Assembly: GCF_018977255.1 (NCBI RefSeq)
Contig: NW_024704742.1
Span: 95,854,001-95,918,000, forward strand
Reading direction: 5' to 3'
DNA from: Callorhinchus milii
Lineage: Eukaryota
Length of the DNA stretch: 64,000 nt
Below the pieces are notes generated by a model that searched no databases, had not been told where the DNA came from, and saw nothing but the letters and a program-made list of their open reading frames with translations. Each line of letters starts with the position of its first letter. Position 1 is the stretch's first letter. A program made the translations under genes and the position numbers. Positions 15,448-59,368 of the stretch are shown in pieces.

Positions 15448-15788
15448 AATAATAATCCTTATAATAATCCCTCAAGGAAAAAAAAACAATAATAAAATTG
15501 GTCACTTCGATCCACGATTGTTTGTGAGACACTGCTGTGCGCAATTGGTTGTCGTGCTTCACCGACAAATATACATTTATATATATACGCACGACAGCCA
15601 ATTGTGCATAGCAGTGTCTCACAAACAATCGTGGATCGAAGTGGCCAATTTTATTATTTTTTTTCTTGAGGGATTATTATCAGGTGTGTGAAGTAAGGAA
15701 ACTTGCCCAAGATTTCACCCTACCGGGAATCGAACCCAGATCTCTCCCTTGCGAGGTGAGTGGTCTAACCACTGAGCTACAGGACCCC
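15448..15788 (-). mobile_element. SINE family A, short form, whose 3' half is replaced by an inverted duplication
   Basis: tRNA-like head at about 15715-15788 (minus); arms 15461-15557 and 15589-15680 are reverse complements. Confidence 0.85.
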
Positions 15789-17152: not shown

Positions 17153-17770
17153 CTGTGGGCGGAGCTGTGATGCTGTGGGCGGGGCTGTGCTGCTGCGGTG
17201 GGCGGGGCTGTGCTGCTGTGGGTGGGGGTGTGCTGCTGCGGTGGGCGGCGCTGTGCTGCTGTGGGCGGGGCTGTGCTGCTGCTGTGGGCGGGGCTGTGCT
17301 GCTGCGGTGGGCGGGGCTGTGCTGATATGGGTGGGGGTGCGCTGCTGCGGTGGGCGGCGCTGTGCTGCTGTGGGCGGGGCTGTGCTGCTGCGGTGGGCGG
17401 GGCTGTGCTGCTGTGGGTGGGGCTGTGCTGCTGTGGTGGGCGGGGCTGTGCTGCTGTAGGTGGGGATGTGCTGCTGCGGTGGGCGGGGCTGTGTTGCTGT
17501 GGTGGGCGGGGCTGTGCTGCTGCGGTGGGCGGGGCTGTGCTGCTGTGGTGGGCGGGGCTGTGTTGCTGTGGTGGGCGGGGCTGTGCTGCTGCGGTGGGCG
17601 GGGCTGTGCTGCTGTGGTGGGCTGGGCTGGCCATTTGGTGTGGCGGGGCTGTGCTGCTGTGGTGGGCGGGGCTGTGCTGCTGTGGTGGGCGGGGCTGTGC
17701 TGCTGTGGTGGGCGGGGCTGAGCCATTACTGTGGGCGGGGCTGTGCTTCTGCTGTGGGCGGGGCTGAGCC
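17153..17770. repeat. GC-rich minisatellite with 20/23-bp units CTGTGCTGCTG(YGG)TGGGCGGGG
   Basis: Directly visible tandem array of more than 25 variant units; produces stop-free ORFs on both strands. Confidence 0.97.
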
Positions 17771-26980: not shown

Positions 26981-27735
26981 CAACAACAACAAGATTACAT
27001 TTATATAGCGCCTTTCATGTCGGGAGGACGTCCCAAGGTGCTGGACAGTGTACAGCATTTCAGACCCGAACTGGGGTCAGTGGGGGAGAAGGGAGGCGAG
27101 GGGAAGGGAGGTGGCCGATGGCATGGTCGAAAAGGAGGGTCTTGAGGCAGGACTTGAAGGAGGCTAAGGAGGGGGCGAGGTGGGGCGATTGGGGGATGGA
27201 GTTCCAGAGGTTGGGGGCAGAGTGGCTGAAGGCTCTCCCGCCAATGGTGGGGTGGGTGGGTCAGGGGACTTGGAGCAGGCCAGAGCTGGCTGAGCGGAGG
27301 GAGCTGTCGGGTTGATAGGGGGTTAGGAGGTCGCAGAGGTAGGGTGGGGTGAGGCCGTGGAGGACTTTGTACGTGAGGACCAGGATCTTGAACTGGATCC
27401 TCTGAAGGATAGGGAGCCAATGGAGTCGGGCGAGAATGGGGGAGATGGGGTCACCGAGTTTGGTGTGGGAGAGAACATGGGCTGCAGAGTTCTGGATTAT
27501 CTGCAGCCCTGTGGAGGGAGGAGTTGGAAAGACGACAAGTAGGGCGTTTGACAGTCGAGCCTGGAGGTGATGAAGGCATGAACTAGAGTTTCAGCGGCCT
27601 GAGGGGTGAGGTAGTGGCGGAGTCGGCGATGTTACGGAGGTGAGGGAAGGCAGAGTGGATCATGGCTTGGATGTGGGGAAAAAAAGACAGTTGAGGGTCG
27701 AACAAGACACCGAGGTTCCTGACCTCCACTGGAAT
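26981..27735 (-). mobile_element. L2 LINE 3' fragment (relatively young)
   Basis: GC-rich L2 ORF2 C-terminus on the minus strand; intact 3' stem-loop AGCGCCTTTCATGTCGGGAGGACGTCCCAAGGTGCT; (TTG)n tail. Confidence 0.92.
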
Positions 27736-44760: not shown

Positions 44761-46123
44761 TGTACAAAACTGAGAGCAGGGGACCTGCACAGCTGAACAT
44801 TCAAATGTGTTAGAACTATTTAAAGGTCTTGTGTCCTTAGGAATTTCAAGGAAATTCTTGATCACAGTCACTTGGGTATTGCATACACGTTCCTGCTGAT
44901 TTACTGCTAAAGCCTATCTGTGCTAGGGAGAGAGCGAGAGAGAGAAAAAACAATAACTTGTATGAAGCTTATTGTAAAGCTTTTATAGTCCTGTGTGGAG
45001 GTGACCCAGAAACAATCTGCTGCTATCATTATTGCATTTATAACCTACCCTGCTGGTGAAGTGCATCCGCTTTTTAGATTTTCAACTGCGAAGATAATTA
45101 TCTGGATAGGTTTTTTTCCCCCTTTAATTGATTTAGCGCCTGTTTTCCTCGTCTGCACATCTTTTGAGCCAACTCCGAGCAAGAGGCAATCTGTGGACAG
45201 AGAGCAATGTAGGAATTTACCACCAGATGGGTTTTCCATTGCTTTCAATGGGACTCCTGCCACGGTTCTGTTACAACTAATAGACACAGCACTACCACTC
45301 CCAAATAGATATGCAGACTGTTCCTCTGGGGTGGTTGTGAAACACCTGGTCAATATGTCTGAAATATGAGAGCTGGCGTGTTTTTCACATAAGTACATGC
45401 AAAGTGAACTCACTTGTTCACCCACCCCAGCCCACAAAAGGATACTGGAATTACAGAAAAGTATTATTTCCTATATTGCAATGTGTTTTTTAATGTAGAA
45501 TGATTTCATTTTTTTAAAAATTCACCACTGAGACTGTCCAGATGGATCACAATGATTTTTCTCATCCTGTAGACTCCTATGTTGCAATTACTCAGCATTA
45601 ACGCATTCCCCTCCCACCACAATTCTCCACTGCTGTGAAAATGATGACAATGATGGACAACCCTTAACTTATTTTGAATTGATGATGGAAATCACTATTT
45701 TCTATGCACCCAGGACAGCTAATTCATGGTGTAGGAGGATATGTTTCTCCTGATGGACCTTATAGAGTGTTAAAGATATCAACAACAACTTGCATTAATA
45801 TAGGTCCGTCCCACTGGATGGCACCTCGGAGCACTTCATTTTTTAAAAAAAAACATAATAAAATATTGATTCAAAGTACCAGATATTTGCAGCATTGAAC
45901 AGGTCAGGGAGTGGAAATCTGACTAATCAGAAATGCCAGGTAAAATCTACACCAAAATCACAGCGTTAAAGTCTCCAAACTTGCAAACCTTTCTCAGAAA
46001 AGATAATGTGAACACAGGGAAAGTTTAACTGCTAACTAAGTGTTCCCGATAGCTAGAACATCTCTCAGTATAAAAACGGTAATCAAATTATACTCAACAT
46101 TGGGCAAAACAAACATATATGAT

Positions 46124-47167
46124 GTCTCGTGTGGCGTTCCTCAGGGCTCTGTCCTTGGTCCCCTCCTTTTCAATATCTATATGCTCCCTCTTGGTGACAT
46201 CATCCGCAGACATGGGGTCAACTTCCACATTTATGAGGATGACACCCAACTCTACCTCTCTGCCTCCACCCTTGACTCCAGGACCACTGCTGTCCTAACA
46301 GAATGTCTGTCAGACGTCAAGTCCTGGATGAGAGCTAACTTCCTTCAGTTGAAAGTCAACAAGCGCCTCTTCTCCTCAGGCGCTGACAAGCATTACCATC
46401 CATGGTTGAACAATCCACCTTATTAAGCCAGTCCGGAACCTTGGTGTCTTGTTTGACTCTCAACTATCCCTCAACTACCCCACATTTGCACCATGACCCG
46501 CTCTGGCTTCCCTCACCTCTGTAATATCACCCGGCTCCACCACTGTCTCACACCCCAGGCTGCCGAAACCCTCATACATGCTTTCATTACATTGAGGTTT
46601 GACTATGCAATCTCATTGCTTGTCGGCTTCCCCAATTCCTCCCTCCATAGGCTGCAGATCATCCAGAAATCTGCAGCCCGTATCCTCTCCCACACTAGGC
46701 TCCGTGATTCTATCACACGCATCCTCGCCTGACTCCACTGGCTTTCCATCACACAGAGGTCCTGGTCCTCACCTTCAAAGCCCTCCATGGTCTTGCTCCC
46801 CCCTACCTCTGCGACCTCCTAACCCCCTACCATCCTGCTCGCTCCCTCCACTCAGCGGGCTCCAGCCTGCTTTACGTCCCCCACCTCGCTTGCCCCACTA
46901 TTGGTGGGCGGGCCGTCTGCCACTCTGCCCCCCACCCTCTGGAACTCCATCCCGCAGTCTCTCCACCTCACCCCCTCCCTTGCCTTCTTCGAGCCCAATT
47001 TCAAGACCCTCCTCTTTGACCGTGGTTTCGATCTTCCTGCCTCCCCCTGCCCGCCACCCTCCCAAACCCCGACACCCAGCTCGGGTCCGAAACTCTGTCT
47101 GTCCAGTGCCTTGAGACGTTCTCCCGATGTGAAAGGCGCTATACAAATGTAATTTTGTTGTTGTTGT
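46124..47167 (+). mobile_element. 5'-truncated L2 LINE (RT domain through 3' end), decayed
   Basis: [17 protein letters not shown]...YEDDTQLY (catalytic YADD motif altered); stops and frameshifts; (TTG)n tail. Confidence 0.95.
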
Positions 47168-47470
47168 ATATGCGACCCATATAAGGCGCTAGATGAATCA
47201 GAGTTGCAAATGAGAATAAATCATTGCATTCCTGTCAGCAGACCATGCTGCCTAAGGTACGTAAAGTGTAAGTAAGTAATGGGTAAAAGGTTATTCGAAG
47301 CATTGAATGGCTTCCTAATATGTAGATTATAAATTCATTAGTGCACATACTGAACAAAAGATACCCAGATGGGAGCAAATTTCGCCCACAAAACACACAG
47401 GCAAATCACTTTATAGTATATCTTTGAAGAGCTTTGAGACGTCTCGATGAGTTGCAAGGATTATTATTAT

Positions 47471-47800
47471 GTGGAGTCCTGTAGCTCAGTGGTTAGAGCA
47501 CTCGCTTTGCAAGTGAGAGACCTGAGTTCAATTCCAGGCAGGGCGAAACCTTGGGCAAGTTTCCTTACTCCACACAGAGCCCTAATAATAATCCCTCCAA
47601 AACCAAAAACAATAATAAATTGGTCATTTTCAATCCACGACTGTTTGTGGGACATTGCTGTGCGCAATTAGCTGCCGCGTTCGCCCACAAATATACAGTC
47701 AATTCACTTTACAGTATATTCTGTGAAGCGCTTTGGGACGTCCTCCCGACGTGAAAAGCGCTATATCAAATGCAAGGATTATTATTATTATTATTATTAT
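47471..47800 (+). mobile_element. SINE family A, short form, full length and young
   Basis: tRNA-like head with A box TAGCTCAGTGG and B box GAGTTCAATTCC; perfect 3' stem-loop at 47727-47762; (ATT)n tail. Confidence 0.92.
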
Positions 47801-47909
47801 GTGCCACGATTGCCGCCATTGCATTTTGGAAAAGTCACTATTTTTCTCCGATTAAATGCTTAACATTTTCTTCTAATGCTATGGCTTGTCAAATATTTCA
47901 TGTTCATTT

Positions 47910-48210
47910 AGAATCATAGAATCCTACAGCACAGAAGGAGGCCATTCAGCCCATTGTGCCTGTGCTGGTTCTGTGCAGCCCAATTAGTCCCACTCTCCGC
48001 TCTTTTCCCATAGCATTGAAATTTTTTTCTTTTCAAGTAAATATCCAATTCCCTTTTGAAGGTTATTAATGAATCTGCATTCACCACACTTTCAGGCAGT
48101 GCATTCCAGATCGTAACAGTTCACTGCGTAACAAAAATTCTCCTCATCTCGCCTCTGGTTCTTTGGCCATTGTCTTGAATCTGTGTCCTCTGGTTACCGA
48201 CCCACCCACT
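47910..48210 (-). mobile_element. CR1-type LINE 3' end
   Basis: TAGAATCATAGAATCCTACAGCACAGAAGGAGGCCATTCAGCCC...GGCAGTGCATTCCAGATC...TGTCCTCTGGTT (RTRGH-like motif on the minus strand). Confidence 0.8.
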
Positions 48211-48439
48211 GGTGGAGTGTTGGGGTTGTGATGTGATAATTATCAGCAGTGGAAAATTCAGTCATCTCAGTAGTTGTAGCAATTGACTATTGATGAAACC
48301 ATTGGAACAAAGTTGTGGTGGGGGGGAGGTGGTGGAGTGTTCCCCCACAGCAGTTATTGATGGGGTAGTTACAGTGAGTAGAATGTCCCACGATGTGATA
48401 TATTATCACTGGTGCTATTTAGCACATCACATGACTGCT

Positions 48440-48810
48440 TCTGTCCTATTGGTTCCTATAACCCTGCAACACAAAGCAATTGTGGTTAGGGTGGTCCTAG
48501 TTGGACAAGCAGCAGGAAGCACTCAACGGCAAGCTATGTGGTTTTAGCTGGTTGAACTACTGCAGTACCACTATGCATACTCTCAGGTCCCCAAGCCTCG
48601 GCTCTTGTCAATCCTACATCTAATACCCCGGAATTAGGTAAGCCAGGGCTTGTCCCTCCAGGGAGAGTGCGGCTTCCATTCCAGACACAGGAAAATTTCA
48701 ATATGTGTGTGGCATTTGAGGCATAAGTGGAAGTCTCAGTCTAGTTTGGATACTCATAAGCATGGTGATGAGTTTCTGCATGTTTCAGATACCTGAGTGG
48801 CCAATAAATA
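48440..48810 (-). repeat. Family D copy
   Basis: Reverse complement aligns with the 13750, 41240 and 57195 copies. Confidence 0.65.
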
Positions 48811-50483
48811 CATTTTGGACTGCGATAGCCCAAGGTTCAGTAATCTATCAATAACTTCAGTAATGTCTCAGAGGTTCAGGCATGTAAATGGGCGAGGTCC
48901 TCGAAGGTGACTGGCTACCTTGGAATCGTACTTTAGGAGAAGGATAACAAAGTACCTCATCTTCTGGAGAGAAGAAAATTGGAAGCGAAAAAAAAACTCC
49001 ATGTTTAGAGAGCCTCCAAGGCAGCAGAAAATCATAAATTTTCTTTCTTAATTGATTTCTAGAAACCATTAAGTGCCTTAATTGCTGTTTTCAACAATGT
49101 TGTCACAAGCCACTATTTACTTGTACCACGAGGTAGAAGATTGCAAGTCCTATTTTAAACAGTCCAAATGTCCATTTCCTGCTGCGGCTATTCAGGCGGA
49201 CATTTTACTGGCAAGGCAATCTAGTAAAGTGATGGCTTTACTGGACAAGAAGCTGTGATGCTGTTAGGAATAAACAATGCATCTCACAGGCTCAGTTAAA
49301 CCACACATGTGGTTTAGTCATCAGGGTGCAATTACTTTCCAACTTCTCACACTGGACATTTAAAGATATTCAATCTGCAGGATCAAGGTGACATTAACAA
49401 AGGAATGACCAAAGGTAAAGAAAATTGAATATAAAAATAGTAATTGCATAATAACTGGTGAGAGGCCTCATTTACTTAATAATAACAATAAAACTCTTTG
49501 ATTTTGCCATTTATCATGATGTCAAGATATTTCAAAGCATTTCACAGGATTTACTGAGTGTAGTGACTCCATTTTGTAGGCGAATGCATTCAAAATGAAT
49601 TTGTGCTTCCACAGGGTTCTAATCTAAGTTCATTGCAACCTTTGTGAATTATAGGAAACTATTTTAAAGTGTTTCAGTATGATTGTGTCAACTTTAAATA
49701 GTTTGCCTCAGGATTGGCGTGTCACATAATAGTCCCAAAGTCTGCAACAGCTATTGGGCATTGTAATTGGATAACCGGTTTAAGTTTAGGTACCTACGAT
49801 CAAACACAGTATTTATGAAAATATCTCTATCACCTCAATGAAAACTCCACTACATTTAAAAAATAGAGAAATATGTATATTATTAATGGCTAAAATCATA
49901 CCACTGTTTATGAAAAAATACTGCACTTGTTGCAACACAAATTAAAATCATATGCTGAGCACTAAATTTCCCCAGATCATCTGTGCAAAAGACATCTGGT
50001 TTGCAAAATCTTTAAAACTACTGAGCCGGGGAGGATCTGAAGGGGGGAGGGATTGACCAAAAGTATTCGCAAAGAGGCAAATCTGGATGTTGATGTAAAT
50101 TGTCGAGGAGTACAAGGTGTCATGTGAGATTTACCCAAAAGAAAATTTGCTTCATTTGAATGTGTTTTTCAATTGTGTAACAAAATTGCTATTTCCAGAA
50201 AATATATTTTACTAATTCTGTTTGGATTATCTGAATTAGAGTGAAACGACTTGTGAATACTGAAAACACCTATTGTTGTGACGTAGTGAATTGCTTTGTG
50301 CATCTGGGAGATGCAATCCAATTATAGCCCTATAATGGCTATACCTATTAGCATAAATTGTGGAGTTTCAAATCAATTAGAGGCAAGCAGGTCAGGATCA
50401 CCTAATAACCATGTTGCTAAGACTACAATGAGTATTAGGCCAAACTGTTATAACTACCAACAATCATTGTTAGAACAATGTTA

Positions 50484-50970
50484 AGACTTTGAACTCATAG
50501 TCTAGGTCAGTGGTGGCCAATCTTTAAGGTTGTCCAACAAAATAAATGTTCTTGATTGAGTATTACCTAGACTTGTGCGAATATTTGGGGGCTGCTTCTT
50601 GATGACCCCGCAGGCACAGATTGACCACTACTGGTCTAGGCTGGCAATCCAGTGGAGTGCTGGGAGTCTGTTGCATTGATGGAGGTGCTGACCTTTAGAT
50701 GAGATGTTAAACTGAGGTCCTATCTGACTGTTCAGCTGGACATTAAAGATCCCAATTTGAAAAGAGAACAGAGTTTCTCCCAATGTTCTGGCCAACAATA
50801 CCCCAAGTGAAATTGATAATTCACTTCATGGCTATTTGCGGAACATTGGTGTATACAAATTGCTTCCACAAAATACATTGTCTTTACACTTTACAGTAAA
50901 TCCTGTGAGGCACTTGGAGGTGTTTTGACAACATGACAAGTTGTTATATCAAATGCAAGAATTATTATTT
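50484..50970 (+). mobile_element. Family B SINE interrupted by a hAT MITE
   Basis: GACTTTGAACTCATAGTCTAGG | insert | CTGGCAATCCAGTG...GATGAGATGTTAAACTGAGGTCC. Confidence 0.8.
50508..50633. mobile_element. hAT (Charlie-type) MITE, 126 bp
   Basis: TIRs CAGTGGTGGCCAATC / GATTGACCACTACTG (13/15 match); 8-bp TSD GTCTAGGT / GTCTAGGC resembling the NTCTAGAN Charlie target. Confidence 0.8.
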
Positions 50971-51314
50971 ATAGTGAGCGAGGTGGAAGGTGGTGCAAAG
51001 AATCAAAGCAACTATTTAGAATTTAAAGTTAAAATCATGTGCATCAGATTCTAGCATGTCACCAATGCGGCCTATTAGAGCTGCTTGGAGTTTCAATACA
51101 ATAATCAATCTCCCAATGGGATTACATCCTCCTGACTTGAAAGGTCTCCACAAACAAGGGTTTAGCCAATCATGGGATGAAGGTAGCCAAGCGTTTAACT
51201 CAGTACGTGTTGTCATGGGAACTGCCAGCTGTTGGAAAGATCTTCAGTACATTTTTATTTCATGTTTTTTTAAAAAAATGAAATCTAAAACTTTCAACAT
51301 CAAAATTACTTTGG

Positions 51315-51700
51315 TGCCAGCTCTCGCCTCTGAGTCAGAAGGTTGTGGGTTTAAACTCCACATCTGGAATTTGAACTCACAGTTTATGCTGATACACCAA
51401 CACAGTGTTGGAGTGTGATGCATTATTGGAGGCACAGTGCTTCAGATGAGACATTAAACTAAGATCCCATCTGTCTATTCAGATGGGCATTAAAGATCCT
51501 ATTGCTTAAAAAGTGAAGGGATTTCCTCTTGGTGATTGGTCATTCACTTCATATCTGTTTGTGGGACATTGCTGTGTGCAAATTGGCTGCAGCCTTTGCC
51601 TACAAACCACACATTACTGTACTTTACAGTAAATCCTGCGAAGCTCTTTGAGACATCCTCCTGACATGAAAGGTGTTAACCAAATGCAAATATTATGTAT
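51315..51700 (+). mobile_element. Family B SINE
   Basis: CTCGCCTCTGAGTCAGAAGGTTGTGGG; Deu core; L2-type tail. Confidence 0.85.
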
Positions 51701-52978
51701 TTAGTTTGACTTCAGTGTGGTGGATTCTCCGACCTTGAAGTAACAAGCACCTGTCAGGAGTTTCAAAATCATAGAATACATCGATATGGTCCATTCATGG
51801 GGTGGCAGCTTGAAGGTCCAATTTAGGACTGGCACCGGGAAATATTTCCTCACACAGAATAATCATAACCTGGGGACTTTGGGATGTCTTTGGGACATCC
51901 TCCTGATGTGAAAGGTGCTGTACAAATGTAATTTGTTGTTGTTGGACTCATTTGAGAGGATAAGAGGTTGGTACTTTGGTGGGATGTGTTAAGTTCAAAT
52001 AAGTTAAAGAACAACTTCTGCATCTGTACCCCTGCATGAAGGGCATTGTGTACAACTTGTTGTTGTACTTCTCTTGTGTAATGATATGAAGTTATGGTTA
52101 TGTGCCTATAAAAGTTATTTGTGGATTTTCAGAGTTCCAATCTGATAATTGCTCTCCCAATAGGACTTTCTGTGCAGTCATGAGCTTGCAGATGTACAGT
52201 GAGGCAGCATTCAATGTGGGTATGTTTGACTCTGAGCAAACAAAGGGAAATTGAACTTTTCTTCTACAAAACTCTCTGCAGATCATAAAGAAAGGTCAAG
52301 AAGGGGAAAAGTGTAGGAGCTATATCATAGACTTTGAGCACTTCAGATTTTAGTCAAGTGACTCTTGACTGAACCAGAAATGTGAAAAAGAAAATGAAAG
52401 GAAAAAAAGAATAACATAAAGGAGGACTTGTTGAGGAAAAAGAAAGCAAAATATAGTAAATATGTTTTGAAAATTAAGGGAGATACTCGAGAGAGAACTT
52501 TCATTTAAAATGCAATGAAAAAGAGTGCGTTTGAACAGAAAATGATTTTTAAAAATGAAAGCAAAAAAAAGTATGGAGTAGCACAGGGAAAAAATGTCAT
52601 TACACAACCGCCAGAGAATTCATCAAAAGCGATGGAAATCCCACTGAAACAAGCCAGACATGAGGAGACAATAAAGGCGAGATTGTAATAAGAGTACAGC
52701 ACAGATAAAAAGTTTGGAAAGGCTAAAAATGAAACAAAAGAGAGGGAATAAGCTTCGTGACCACTTAAAGAAGACGAAGAAAAAACAAGCCAAGACAACT
52801 GGGAATATGAAGCCACAAGGGAAATTGTTTCTTAGCAAAGTGGAATGGATGTGAAAACAATGAAAGGAGTTCTTAGTAATTAGCAGAAAATATATGGAGA
52901 AATACAGAGGAAAAACATCATTACATAACTGAGGAATAGAGAATTCATCAAAAGTAATGAATTTTCCTACATACAAAT

Positions 52979-54051
52979 ACAACAAAAACAAAATTACATT
53001 TGTATAGTGCCTTTCACGTTGGGAGTTATGGACCCGAGCTGAGGGTTGGGGTGGGGGAGGGTGGAGGGCAGGGGGGGGAAGCAGGGAGATCAAAAGCACA
53101 GTCGAAGAGGAGGGTCTTGAGGTGGGTCTTGAAGGTGGTGAGGGAGGGGGCGAGACGGAGGGACTGCAGGATGGAGTTCCAGAGGGTGAGTGCAAAGTGG
53201 CAGAAGACCCGACCGCCGATAGTGGGGCGAACAAGGTGGGGGACGTGAAGCAGGCCGGAGCCCGCTGAGCGGAGAGAGCAGACAGGATGGTATGGGGTTA
53301 TGATGTCAGAGAGGTAGGGGGGAGCAAGACTGTGGAGGGTTTTGAAGGTGAGGACCAGAATCTTGAACTGTATCCTCTGTGTGATGGGAAGCCAGTGGAG
53401 TTGGGCAAGGATGGGGATGATAGGGTCATGGAGCCTAGTGCGGGAGAGGACACGGGCTGCAGAGTTCTGGATGATCTGCAGCCTGTGGAGGAAGGAGTTG
53501 GGAAGGCCGAAAAGCAATGAGTTTGCATAGTCGACCCTCGATGTAATGAAGGCACGTATGAAGGTTTCAGCGGCCTCGGTTGTGAGACAGTGTCGGAGCT
53601 GGGCGACATTGCGGAGGTGGAGGAAGGCAGAGCGGGTCATTGTGCAGATGTGGGGTAGGAGGAATAGTTGAGGGTCAAACAAGACACCAAGGTTCTGGAC
53701 TGGCTTAATAAGGTGGATTGTTCAACCATGGATGGTAATGCTTGTCAGCGCCTGAGGAGAAGAGGCGCTTGTTGACTTTCAACTGAAGGAAGTTAGCTCT
53801 CATCCAGGACTTGACGTCTGACAGACATTCTGTCAGCACAGCAGTGATCCTGGAGTCAAGGGTGGAGACAGAGAGGTAGAGTTGGGTGTCATCCGCATAC
53901 ATGTGGAAGTTGACCCCATGTCTGCGGATGATGTCACCAAAAGGGAGCATATAGATGTTGAAGAGGAGGGGACCAATGACAGAGCCCTGAGGAACGCCAC
54001 ACGAGACCGTCCGGGGGCTAGAGGAGAAGCCGTTTGAGGAGATACACTGTC
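52979..54051 (-). mobile_element. 5'-truncated L2 LINE (RT domain through 3' end)
   Basis: YADDTQLY motif (ORF 53705-53950) and 218-aa C-terminal ORF 53026-53682 (LQIIQNSAAR...LHWLPITQRIQFK...FKTHLKTLLF). Confidence 0.95.
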
Positions 54052-54169
54052 ACTGCACATTATAGTAAATCCTGTGAAGCACTTCTTCTGGTGTGAAATA
54101 TCCATTGCTATTATTATTGTTATTGTCTCCTCTGACAGCTATGGTGATAAAGCCAATTTATAAATAAAA

Positions 54170-57805: not shown

Positions 57806-59368
57806 GTATACTCCGCATTGTACAGAGACTGATCACCATCAGCCCATCCTTATTAGAGTTAATGGCAGTAGTATTCAATGGGAAGATGCACAAATGCAAA
57901 AAAATAATATGTCTCCCAGGCTGACCAGAAGGGCCTTCCACATCTGAACCAATCTGTGATCTTGTTCTAAAAGTGTGTGGGTGTACTATGCATTCAGTAG
58001 ATGGCGCCAAACCTTTTACGGTAATTTACCCACAAGGCCTTGACTACACTGAACTGCAACGGAAATTCACACTTGAGATTTCTAGACATTGACAAGCTTT
58101 ATTGTTGATTACTTTTGAACACAGAATTCCCTTGAGGTCAATGCATAAAATCACTGTTGTCTTTCACTGATCAGAAGCAGAATTGTTGCATTTTATTAAT
58201 GCCACACACCAAATGTTACTTACTAGATGAGCAATACTATTGGTCATTTTATAGGATTAAAACAATAGATTTGGATGTTTTAAATGAAATAAAAGACGCT
58301 GTTGGTAAAATGCTATTAGCCTGCGCTAGCAGTACCAAGTGAATATAAACAATCAGTTACTTGATTTGAATGGATGCCCCATTTAGTTTGAATAGAAACA
58401 TTTCTAAGAGACAGCAGAGGAAAAAACAAAATTTATGTAACATTATGTCAGCATTATGTACACTCTGATTGATAATAACTATAGGATCAAAAAGAGAATA
58501 TTTATAGAAATGAGAGGGGGATTTCAAATGCTATGTGCATTTATGAAGAACATACTGGATTTATTTTAATACTTATTTAATGCTTCATTGAAAAAAATAT
58601 TGTTGATGGATGAAACATGCTTGCAATGACAACTAATACAAAACACTATTTGTTGAGGGGTTTATTGGTTGCTATTTTAATGTCTTTTACATCAAGTGTG
58701 CCACCGGTGAACTGGCACAGAGTCGACTGGCTGTTAAAATCCAGACTCATCACTCACTGCCACATAAAGAAAAATGGCCACTTGGGCAAAGAATGAAGGC
58801 ACATGGAAAGTTGCAGCTTAGGATGGAAATGGGGAGAGAAGCTGGAAAACATTAAAGAAAAAAAACTTCCCCCTTCTGTTCTCTATGGAAATTCTATTCA
58901 AAGCGCTTTGAGACTTGATAAGGCGCTACATCAAATGCAAGGATTATTATTATTGCTATAGTTGTCTACTGATTATAATGATAATAATAATAATAATAAT
59001 AATAATCCTTGCATTTGATAGAGCCCCTTATCACATCTTCGGATTGGGTATAAATCCAATTTGCCATGTCCAGTAGTTATCTTTATTTTAAATGATAGTC
59101 TTATGACTACATATCCATGACAAATGATTCCTTGCTTTTGAAAGAAGCATCTTTCGGATGGGATAATTTCTTTGATAAGTTAGAAAGAATTATAATTGAA
59201 AGTACCTGAAGGTCTAATGGAGCTAATGTATCTAAATTGTCCTGCGAGACCAATGCACCCATATATTTTGCTTCATTAGATCTGATCCTACTCCGTCTCC
59301 ATAAAGAGCTGCGAGCGTTATCTTATGAAGTGAAATGTGCTACCTAAGTGCAAGTGCAATCATACCTT

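Follow-up and report, generated by a model that had tools for sequence, protein, structure and literature searches.

How can two dead copies of a retrotransposon that have decayed independently over most of their length be letter-for-letter identical over 137 bp and carry the same disabling changes there? The question is raised by a 64-kb stretch of the genome of Callorhinchus milii (NCBI RefSeq assembly GCF_018977255.1, contig NW_024704742.1, positions 95,854,001 to 95,918,000), here called the window, in which two L2-type long interspersed nuclear element (LINE) copies face each other, copy A on the plus strand and copy B on the minus strand; all coordinates are positions in this window. The identity of the tract, the independent decay outside it and a sharing of non-family changes that is confined to the tract, apart from two sites in the 3' part described below, are observed. 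The explanation that we consider probable, at roughly 70%, is recent non-allelic gene conversion between the neighboring copies without crossover, whereby the repair route, the recency, and the absence of a crossover are what we infer from these observations.

An identical tract in two decayed LINE copies

Copy A (46124-47167, plus strand) and copy B (52979-54043, minus strand) are both 5'-truncated and decayed, and A extends from the C-terminal part of the reverse transcriptase (RT) to the 3' tail. The Pfam domain RVT_1 was above the cut-off in A (E=3e-13) and in B (E=2e-15), in both cases representing the C-terminal part of the RT. A 231-amino-acid frame of B matches L2-like RT proteins, its closest named proteins being C. 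milii UniRef entries with 80% and 74% identity, and the protein relatives possess an RT and many of them additionally endonuclease Pfam domains. The copies align over about 1,065 columns with 85% identity and are arranged tail-to-tail, with 5.8 kb between the tails and 7.3 kb between the identical tracts, which bears out the facing L2 pair about 5.8 kb apart described in an earlier note on this DNA. Their 3' tail (tail family D5, with a simple-repeat end) is common to the tRNA-headed short interspersed nuclear elements (SINEs) of the window. The assignment to the L2 type is a probable one, supported by this shared tail and by the label given in the earlier note.

Contigs from sequencing runs were aligned on 45850-47400 at 85% likeness. 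X1 and X2 are DNA-like and come from the same organism (about 77,000 contigs each), X5 is possibly an RNA run, and X8 is from another organism. The 5' junction of copy A is exact in an independent contig (X2 record 9, 45850-46135), and so is the 3' junction (X1 record 8, 47142-47400; X2 record 16, 47147-47400). More than 1,000 loose contig ends of run X1 are located at 47167, the end of the LINE tail.

The identical tract of 137 bp occupies 46298-46434 in copy A (plus strand) and 53697-53833 in copy B (minus strand), one being the exact reverse complement of the other, as the earlier note had recognized. Counting each indel as one difference, A and B differ at 10/174 positions (5.7%) of the 5' flank (46124-46297), at 0/137 positions of the tract, and at 110/712 positions (15.4%) of the 3' part (46435-47172). 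These counts match the roughly 10 mismatches in about 170 bp upstream and the more diverged, indel-bearing 3' parts that had been noted before. The contrast of the tract is marked both to the 5' flank (p=0.003) and to the 3' part (p=2e-9), and the absence of differences limits its pairwise divergence to less than 2.2% (95%), versus 5.7% in the adjoining flank. The second longest identical run between the copies measures only 40 bp, and when the whole alignment was permuted 100,000 times, a run of 137 bp never occurred, the maximum being 126. Copy-specific letters border the tract at 46294 and 46297 on the 5' side and at 46435 and 46458 on the 3' side. Since the difference at 46435 is at a CpG site and possibly a later change, the tract may reach 46457.

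Changes shared by both copies within the tract

The earlier note had reported one disabling lesion common to both copies, in which the frame drifts after NFLQLKVNK into WLNNPPY and a stop. This reading is indeed present in A and B, but it reflects three lesions rather than one (positions in A, plus strand). The junction of a putative in-frame deletion of 30 bp (10 codons), deduced from protein relatives, follows NFLQLKVNK at 46363/46364, within 3 bp of the tract center (46366). One extra A at 46388-46389 probably caused the frameshift, as relatives read GADSITI (P0043) or GADGITI (P0032) in frame. The third lesion is a TGA stop in the original frame at 46407-46409, where the family letter at 46409 is C in 98.4% of the X1 depth and 98.2% of the X2 depth. 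The deletion and the extra A are based on protein alignments and are absent from the contig-alignment indel table. In both copies, the tract contains the 30-bp deletion, the extra base, the TGA stop, and no fewer than four further substitutions, all of them changes that the family lacks.

The comparison with close relatives was based on 13 proteins (11 with at least 75% identity plus P0032 and P0038), and two of these 13 end short of the deletion site. Among the 11 that reach it, all possess the residues after the junction, the 10-residue segment is complete in 10, and the junction of A and B occurs in none; relative P0042 shows a different break at this site. The residue before the deletion is Asn in 122 of 128 motif-bearing proteins (of 190 in total) and in no case Lys, the state of A and B. 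The compared proteins are cluster representatives biased towards open frames, so that dead copies are poorly sampled by them. The lesion-specific part (residues 68-114), a short and hence weak query, returned one candidate and no match in a protein search, and two distant loci with 44-52% identity among 107 candidate stretches of a metagenome scan were not used. Two of the listed family contigs (X1 record 2, X5 record 19) cease aligning exactly at 46363, and the X1 family depth drops about ninefold, from 232,000 to 25,000, just after the deletion junction, although summed contig depth is no true copy number. The lesions are therefore not common in unrelated copies of the two DNA-like runs or in the 11 proteins, so that the condition under which the earlier note would have given up the transfer does not apply.

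The distribution of substitutions was assessed with 40 of 118 difference rows, from which seven with less than 80% of the X1 depth on the other letter (three of them with A and B agreeing) and two with a gap in B were removed. At the remaining 31 well-fixed family sites, A and B share a non-family letter in 4/4 cases within the tract (46316, 46409, 46413, and 46423), 0/4 in the 5' flank, and 2/23 in the 3' part (p=4.8e-4). No more than 1.4-5.3% of the X1 family depth lacks the family letter at these four tract positions. The share is 1.4% at 46316 and 1.6% at 46409, and 1.3-2.4% at the A-private sites 46231, 46297, and 46506; since the contig alignment favors A-like contigs, these values are upper bounds. 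The transfer of sequence between the copies that the earlier note had proposed is supported by this restriction of shared non-family changes to the tract.

The changes of copy A at well-fixed sites amount to 4/174 (2.3%) in the 5' flank, 4/137 (2.9%) in the tract, and 21/660 (3.2%) in the 3' part, i.e., they are even along its length. The tract hence carries the full decay of a copy in both A and B, which argues for a late transfer. A third L2-type copy (26981-27723, minus strand), which is more diverged (75% to A and B) and whose 5' end is located near the 3' edge of the tract, served as the outgroup for the 3' part; relative to it, the private changes number 42 in A and 50 in B, and this load does not separate donor from acceptor.

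Probable conversion and its alternatives

The scenario that would account for these data starts with A and B as independent, old insertions of one abundant L2-type LINE family. Most of their decay would have accumulated before a break or a stalled fork arose in one copy and was repaired with the inverted neighbor 7.3 kb away as a template, possibly by intrachromatid or inter-sister synthesis-dependent repair. The copied stretch of about 137-160 bp would have included the deletion, frameshift, stop, and point changes of the donor, the flanks not being exchanged. Tract length and distance of the copies are within published conversion ranges. The identical patch has no evident function and no evident effect on any gene. 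Among 170 stop-to-stop frames compared with Pfam (30 plus 140; most frames left of 36000 were outside the scan), only the two L2 frames passed the cut-off, and no match was found for a candidate exon at 51019-51243. The long dsRNA from an intronic locus considered in the earlier note finds no support in these data, since the computed duplex of A and B (-695.5 kcal/mol) only restates their complementarity.

The same recombination might have been resolved as a crossover, in which case the tract would mark both ends of an inverted segment of 7.3 kb (46434-53697), and each copy would now be a chimera of 5' and 3' parts. Crossovers are usually disfavored between short repeats with 15% divergence. 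The outcome should also be visible in the target site duplication (TSD), for which the earlier note had proposed the TATATG on both sides of A as an indication of conversion without crossover. The hexamer is present at 46116-46121, 2 nt before A, and at 47167-47172 (both plus strand), and B has TATTTG at the aligned place of the latter. In the present arrangement the candidate TSD thus matches at 6/6 positions (chance p of ~0.009), and a swap with the 3' flank of B would yield a one-mismatch match of 5/6 (chance p of ~0.18), so that it argues only weakly against a crossover. The orientation of repeats in the spacer (4 plus, 1 minus) and in the near flanks (14 plus, 8 minus) is compatible with either state (flipped spacer, p=0.14), the base skew is equally undecisive, and no empty-site joint was detected among the 15 joints listed for X8, whose contigs leave the unique 5' flank (45850-46057) uncovered. 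Inverted repeats are known to cause inversions whose breakpoints fall where the repeats are most alike (PMC3961182, in the accessible part of the text), but in view of the above we consider a crossover at this locus rather unlikely. Somewhat less credible still is the idea that the patch represents a still-segregating, self-reinforcing exchange site, at which the identity would invite repeated conversion and the 7.3-kb spacer would flip time and again and be polymorphic in orientation; the centering of the tract within 3 bp of the deletion would agree with a break repair that used this heterology as its anchor.

An error of assembly or polishing, in which the reads of one copy had overwritten the other in the consensus, might likewise produce a perfect identity with sharp edges. 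Such mis-polishing is quite improbable. The tract does not reach the length of a read, copy-specific letters border it on either side, and the 30-bp indel within it would have had to be imposed against the locus's own reads; moreover, the flanks of A are exact in independent runs, and the unique 5.8-kb spacer should preclude a simple fold-back read chimera. A biological origin without any exchange between A and B would be their descent from a small defective source element or the conversion of both from a third copy or its cDNA. The ~1.6% of family depth at 46409 that is not C leaves room for a few dozen such copies, but the shares at 46409 and 46316 equal the background of the A-private sites, the depth collapses just past the junction, and the junction is missing from all 11 informative proteins. 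A source element furthermore predicts shared changes over the whole length and an even divergence since insertion, neither of which was observed, and this origin is accordingly very improbable. A large defective L2 lineage is excluded by the background-level shares at the tract sites, the drop in depth, the contigs ending at 46363, and the proteins.

Chance agreement of two related copies over a conserved part of the RT has next to no probability. Although the RT-core flank has diverged less than the 3' part (5.7% versus 15%), conservation cannot account for indels and a stop that are shared but foreign to the family. The four non-family shares in the tract multiply to 4e-7, and the comparison with the family runs and the protein relatives refutes this option. 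The low divergence of the 5' flank itself (46124-46297) is best read as conservation of the RT core with few CpGs and not as conversion, because none of its four well-fixed sites shares a non-family letter. When CpG-type changes are removed, the flank is not significantly less diverged than the 3' part (p=0.10). An older conversion of this flank is disfavored, with 0 shared letters versus about 5.5 expected if it had been recently converted.

Several points weigh against gene conversion without crossover as the explanation. Within the 5' block alone (46124-46457), a run of 137 bp has a p value of ~0.03, and the run length alone is therefore modest evidence. CpGs are kept in both copies at 3/4 sites of the 5' flank versus 7/40 in the 3' part (p=0.03), which points to a possible earlier exchange extending across the flank. 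The site test draws on 40 of the 118 difference rows, and among the listed contigs, which are the longest pieces only, no independent one spans the tract, which thus rests on one assembly. Finally, the TSD hardly separates the two arrangements (6/6 versus 5/6), and no outgroup or second haplotype provides the orientation or the direction of the transfer.

Known systems and surroundings of the pair

The pair probably represents a known process. For Alu elements, conversion between neighbors is reportedly more frequent at distances of up to about 10 kb (Aleshin and Zhi 2010, as cited in the available portions of PMC6598467 and PMC8230782). The Alu cases described there resemble the present one in the partial conversion of dispersed, dead retroelement copies less than ~10 kb apart and in shared non-diagnostic mutations, whereas here inverted LINE (L2) fragments of a cartilaginous fish are concerned, and the tract includes a 30-bp deletion and a frameshift. 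The Alu survey, as far as its accessible text goes, demanded confirmation at orthologous loci, in contrast to the single case presented here without it. For interlocus conversion between duplicates (Mansai, Kado and Innan 2011, PMC3924818, in the portion available), most estimates of tract length lie between 50 and several hundred bp, a range that includes the 137-160 bp of the current tract. In contrast to such duplicates, A and B are only ~85% identical overall (94% beside the tract), and an earlier long stretch of identity is not evident. An inverted homologous pair around several kilobases is likewise involved in repeat-mediated inversions (Aguado et al. 2014, PMC3961182), and some of the repeats in the sections at hand are pieces of transposable elements including L2, but the highly identical repeats considered there are at least 1 kb long with at least 97% identity, and no inverted allele is shown for our locus. 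In C. milii itself, L2-2_CM is an abundant L2 element whose 3' tail is common to tRNA-derived SINEs (Luchetti et al. 2017, PMC5499810, in the text at hand), as in the window, a likeness at the level of description. The term "gene conversion" has no occurrence in the available text of that article. In titles and abstracts, with most subscription papers outside the search, we found no report on conversion tracts in inverted LINE copies or on ectopic gene conversion of chondrichthyan transposable elements.

Outside mammals, the locus provides a clean, polarized case of neighbor-to-neighbor conversion of dead LINEs, with the joint copying of a deletion, a frameshift, and a stop. Lesions common to nearby copies hence need not mark a subfamily, and a simple genome-wide test is offered by plotting shared non-family changes against distance and orientation. 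If the exchange-site interpretation were general, in neighboring inverted L2 pairs one copy would hand disabling changes to the other, which would distort family age estimates in a repeat-rich fish genome.

With respect to the 5' ends of the pair, the earlier note had placed both truncations within about 45 bp of the same point. Copy B ends at about 54043-54046 and not at 54051, since the match to close relatives begins at residue 2-3 of its open reading frame and a SINE 3' fragment of 84 bp (54042-54125, plus strand) is joined directly to it with a 2-nt overlap; the offset is therefore about 36-39 bp. The fragment shows 43-bp matches to SINE tails (77-88%), and its right end was read from the sequence. 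No SINE head was found on the other side of B, and a deletion or a chimeric insertion is possible. The 5' end of B may thus be a later junction, and the near-equal 5' ends are no good evidence because B abuts the SINE fragment. A 70-bp direct repeat (76%) is present at 52560-52629 and 52882-52954, in an A-rich stretch beside the tail of B. On the other side of the pair (46060-46109), contigs of both X1 and X5 end at 46060-46062, some 60 bp before the start of copy A, and X2 continues to 46135; this stop may reflect a polymorphism, although a contig gap alone proves nothing.

Three further structures are located elsewhere in the window. At 15457-15684, a SINE body of about 115 bp is folded back near-perfectly around an AT-rich center, with arms that share letters, and looks like the product of a fold-back or a template switch. 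Two SINE tails are joined tail-to-tail as a short palindrome at 58916-59033, and a GC-rich minisatellite with about 28 copies of a 23-bp unit occupies 17155-17766.

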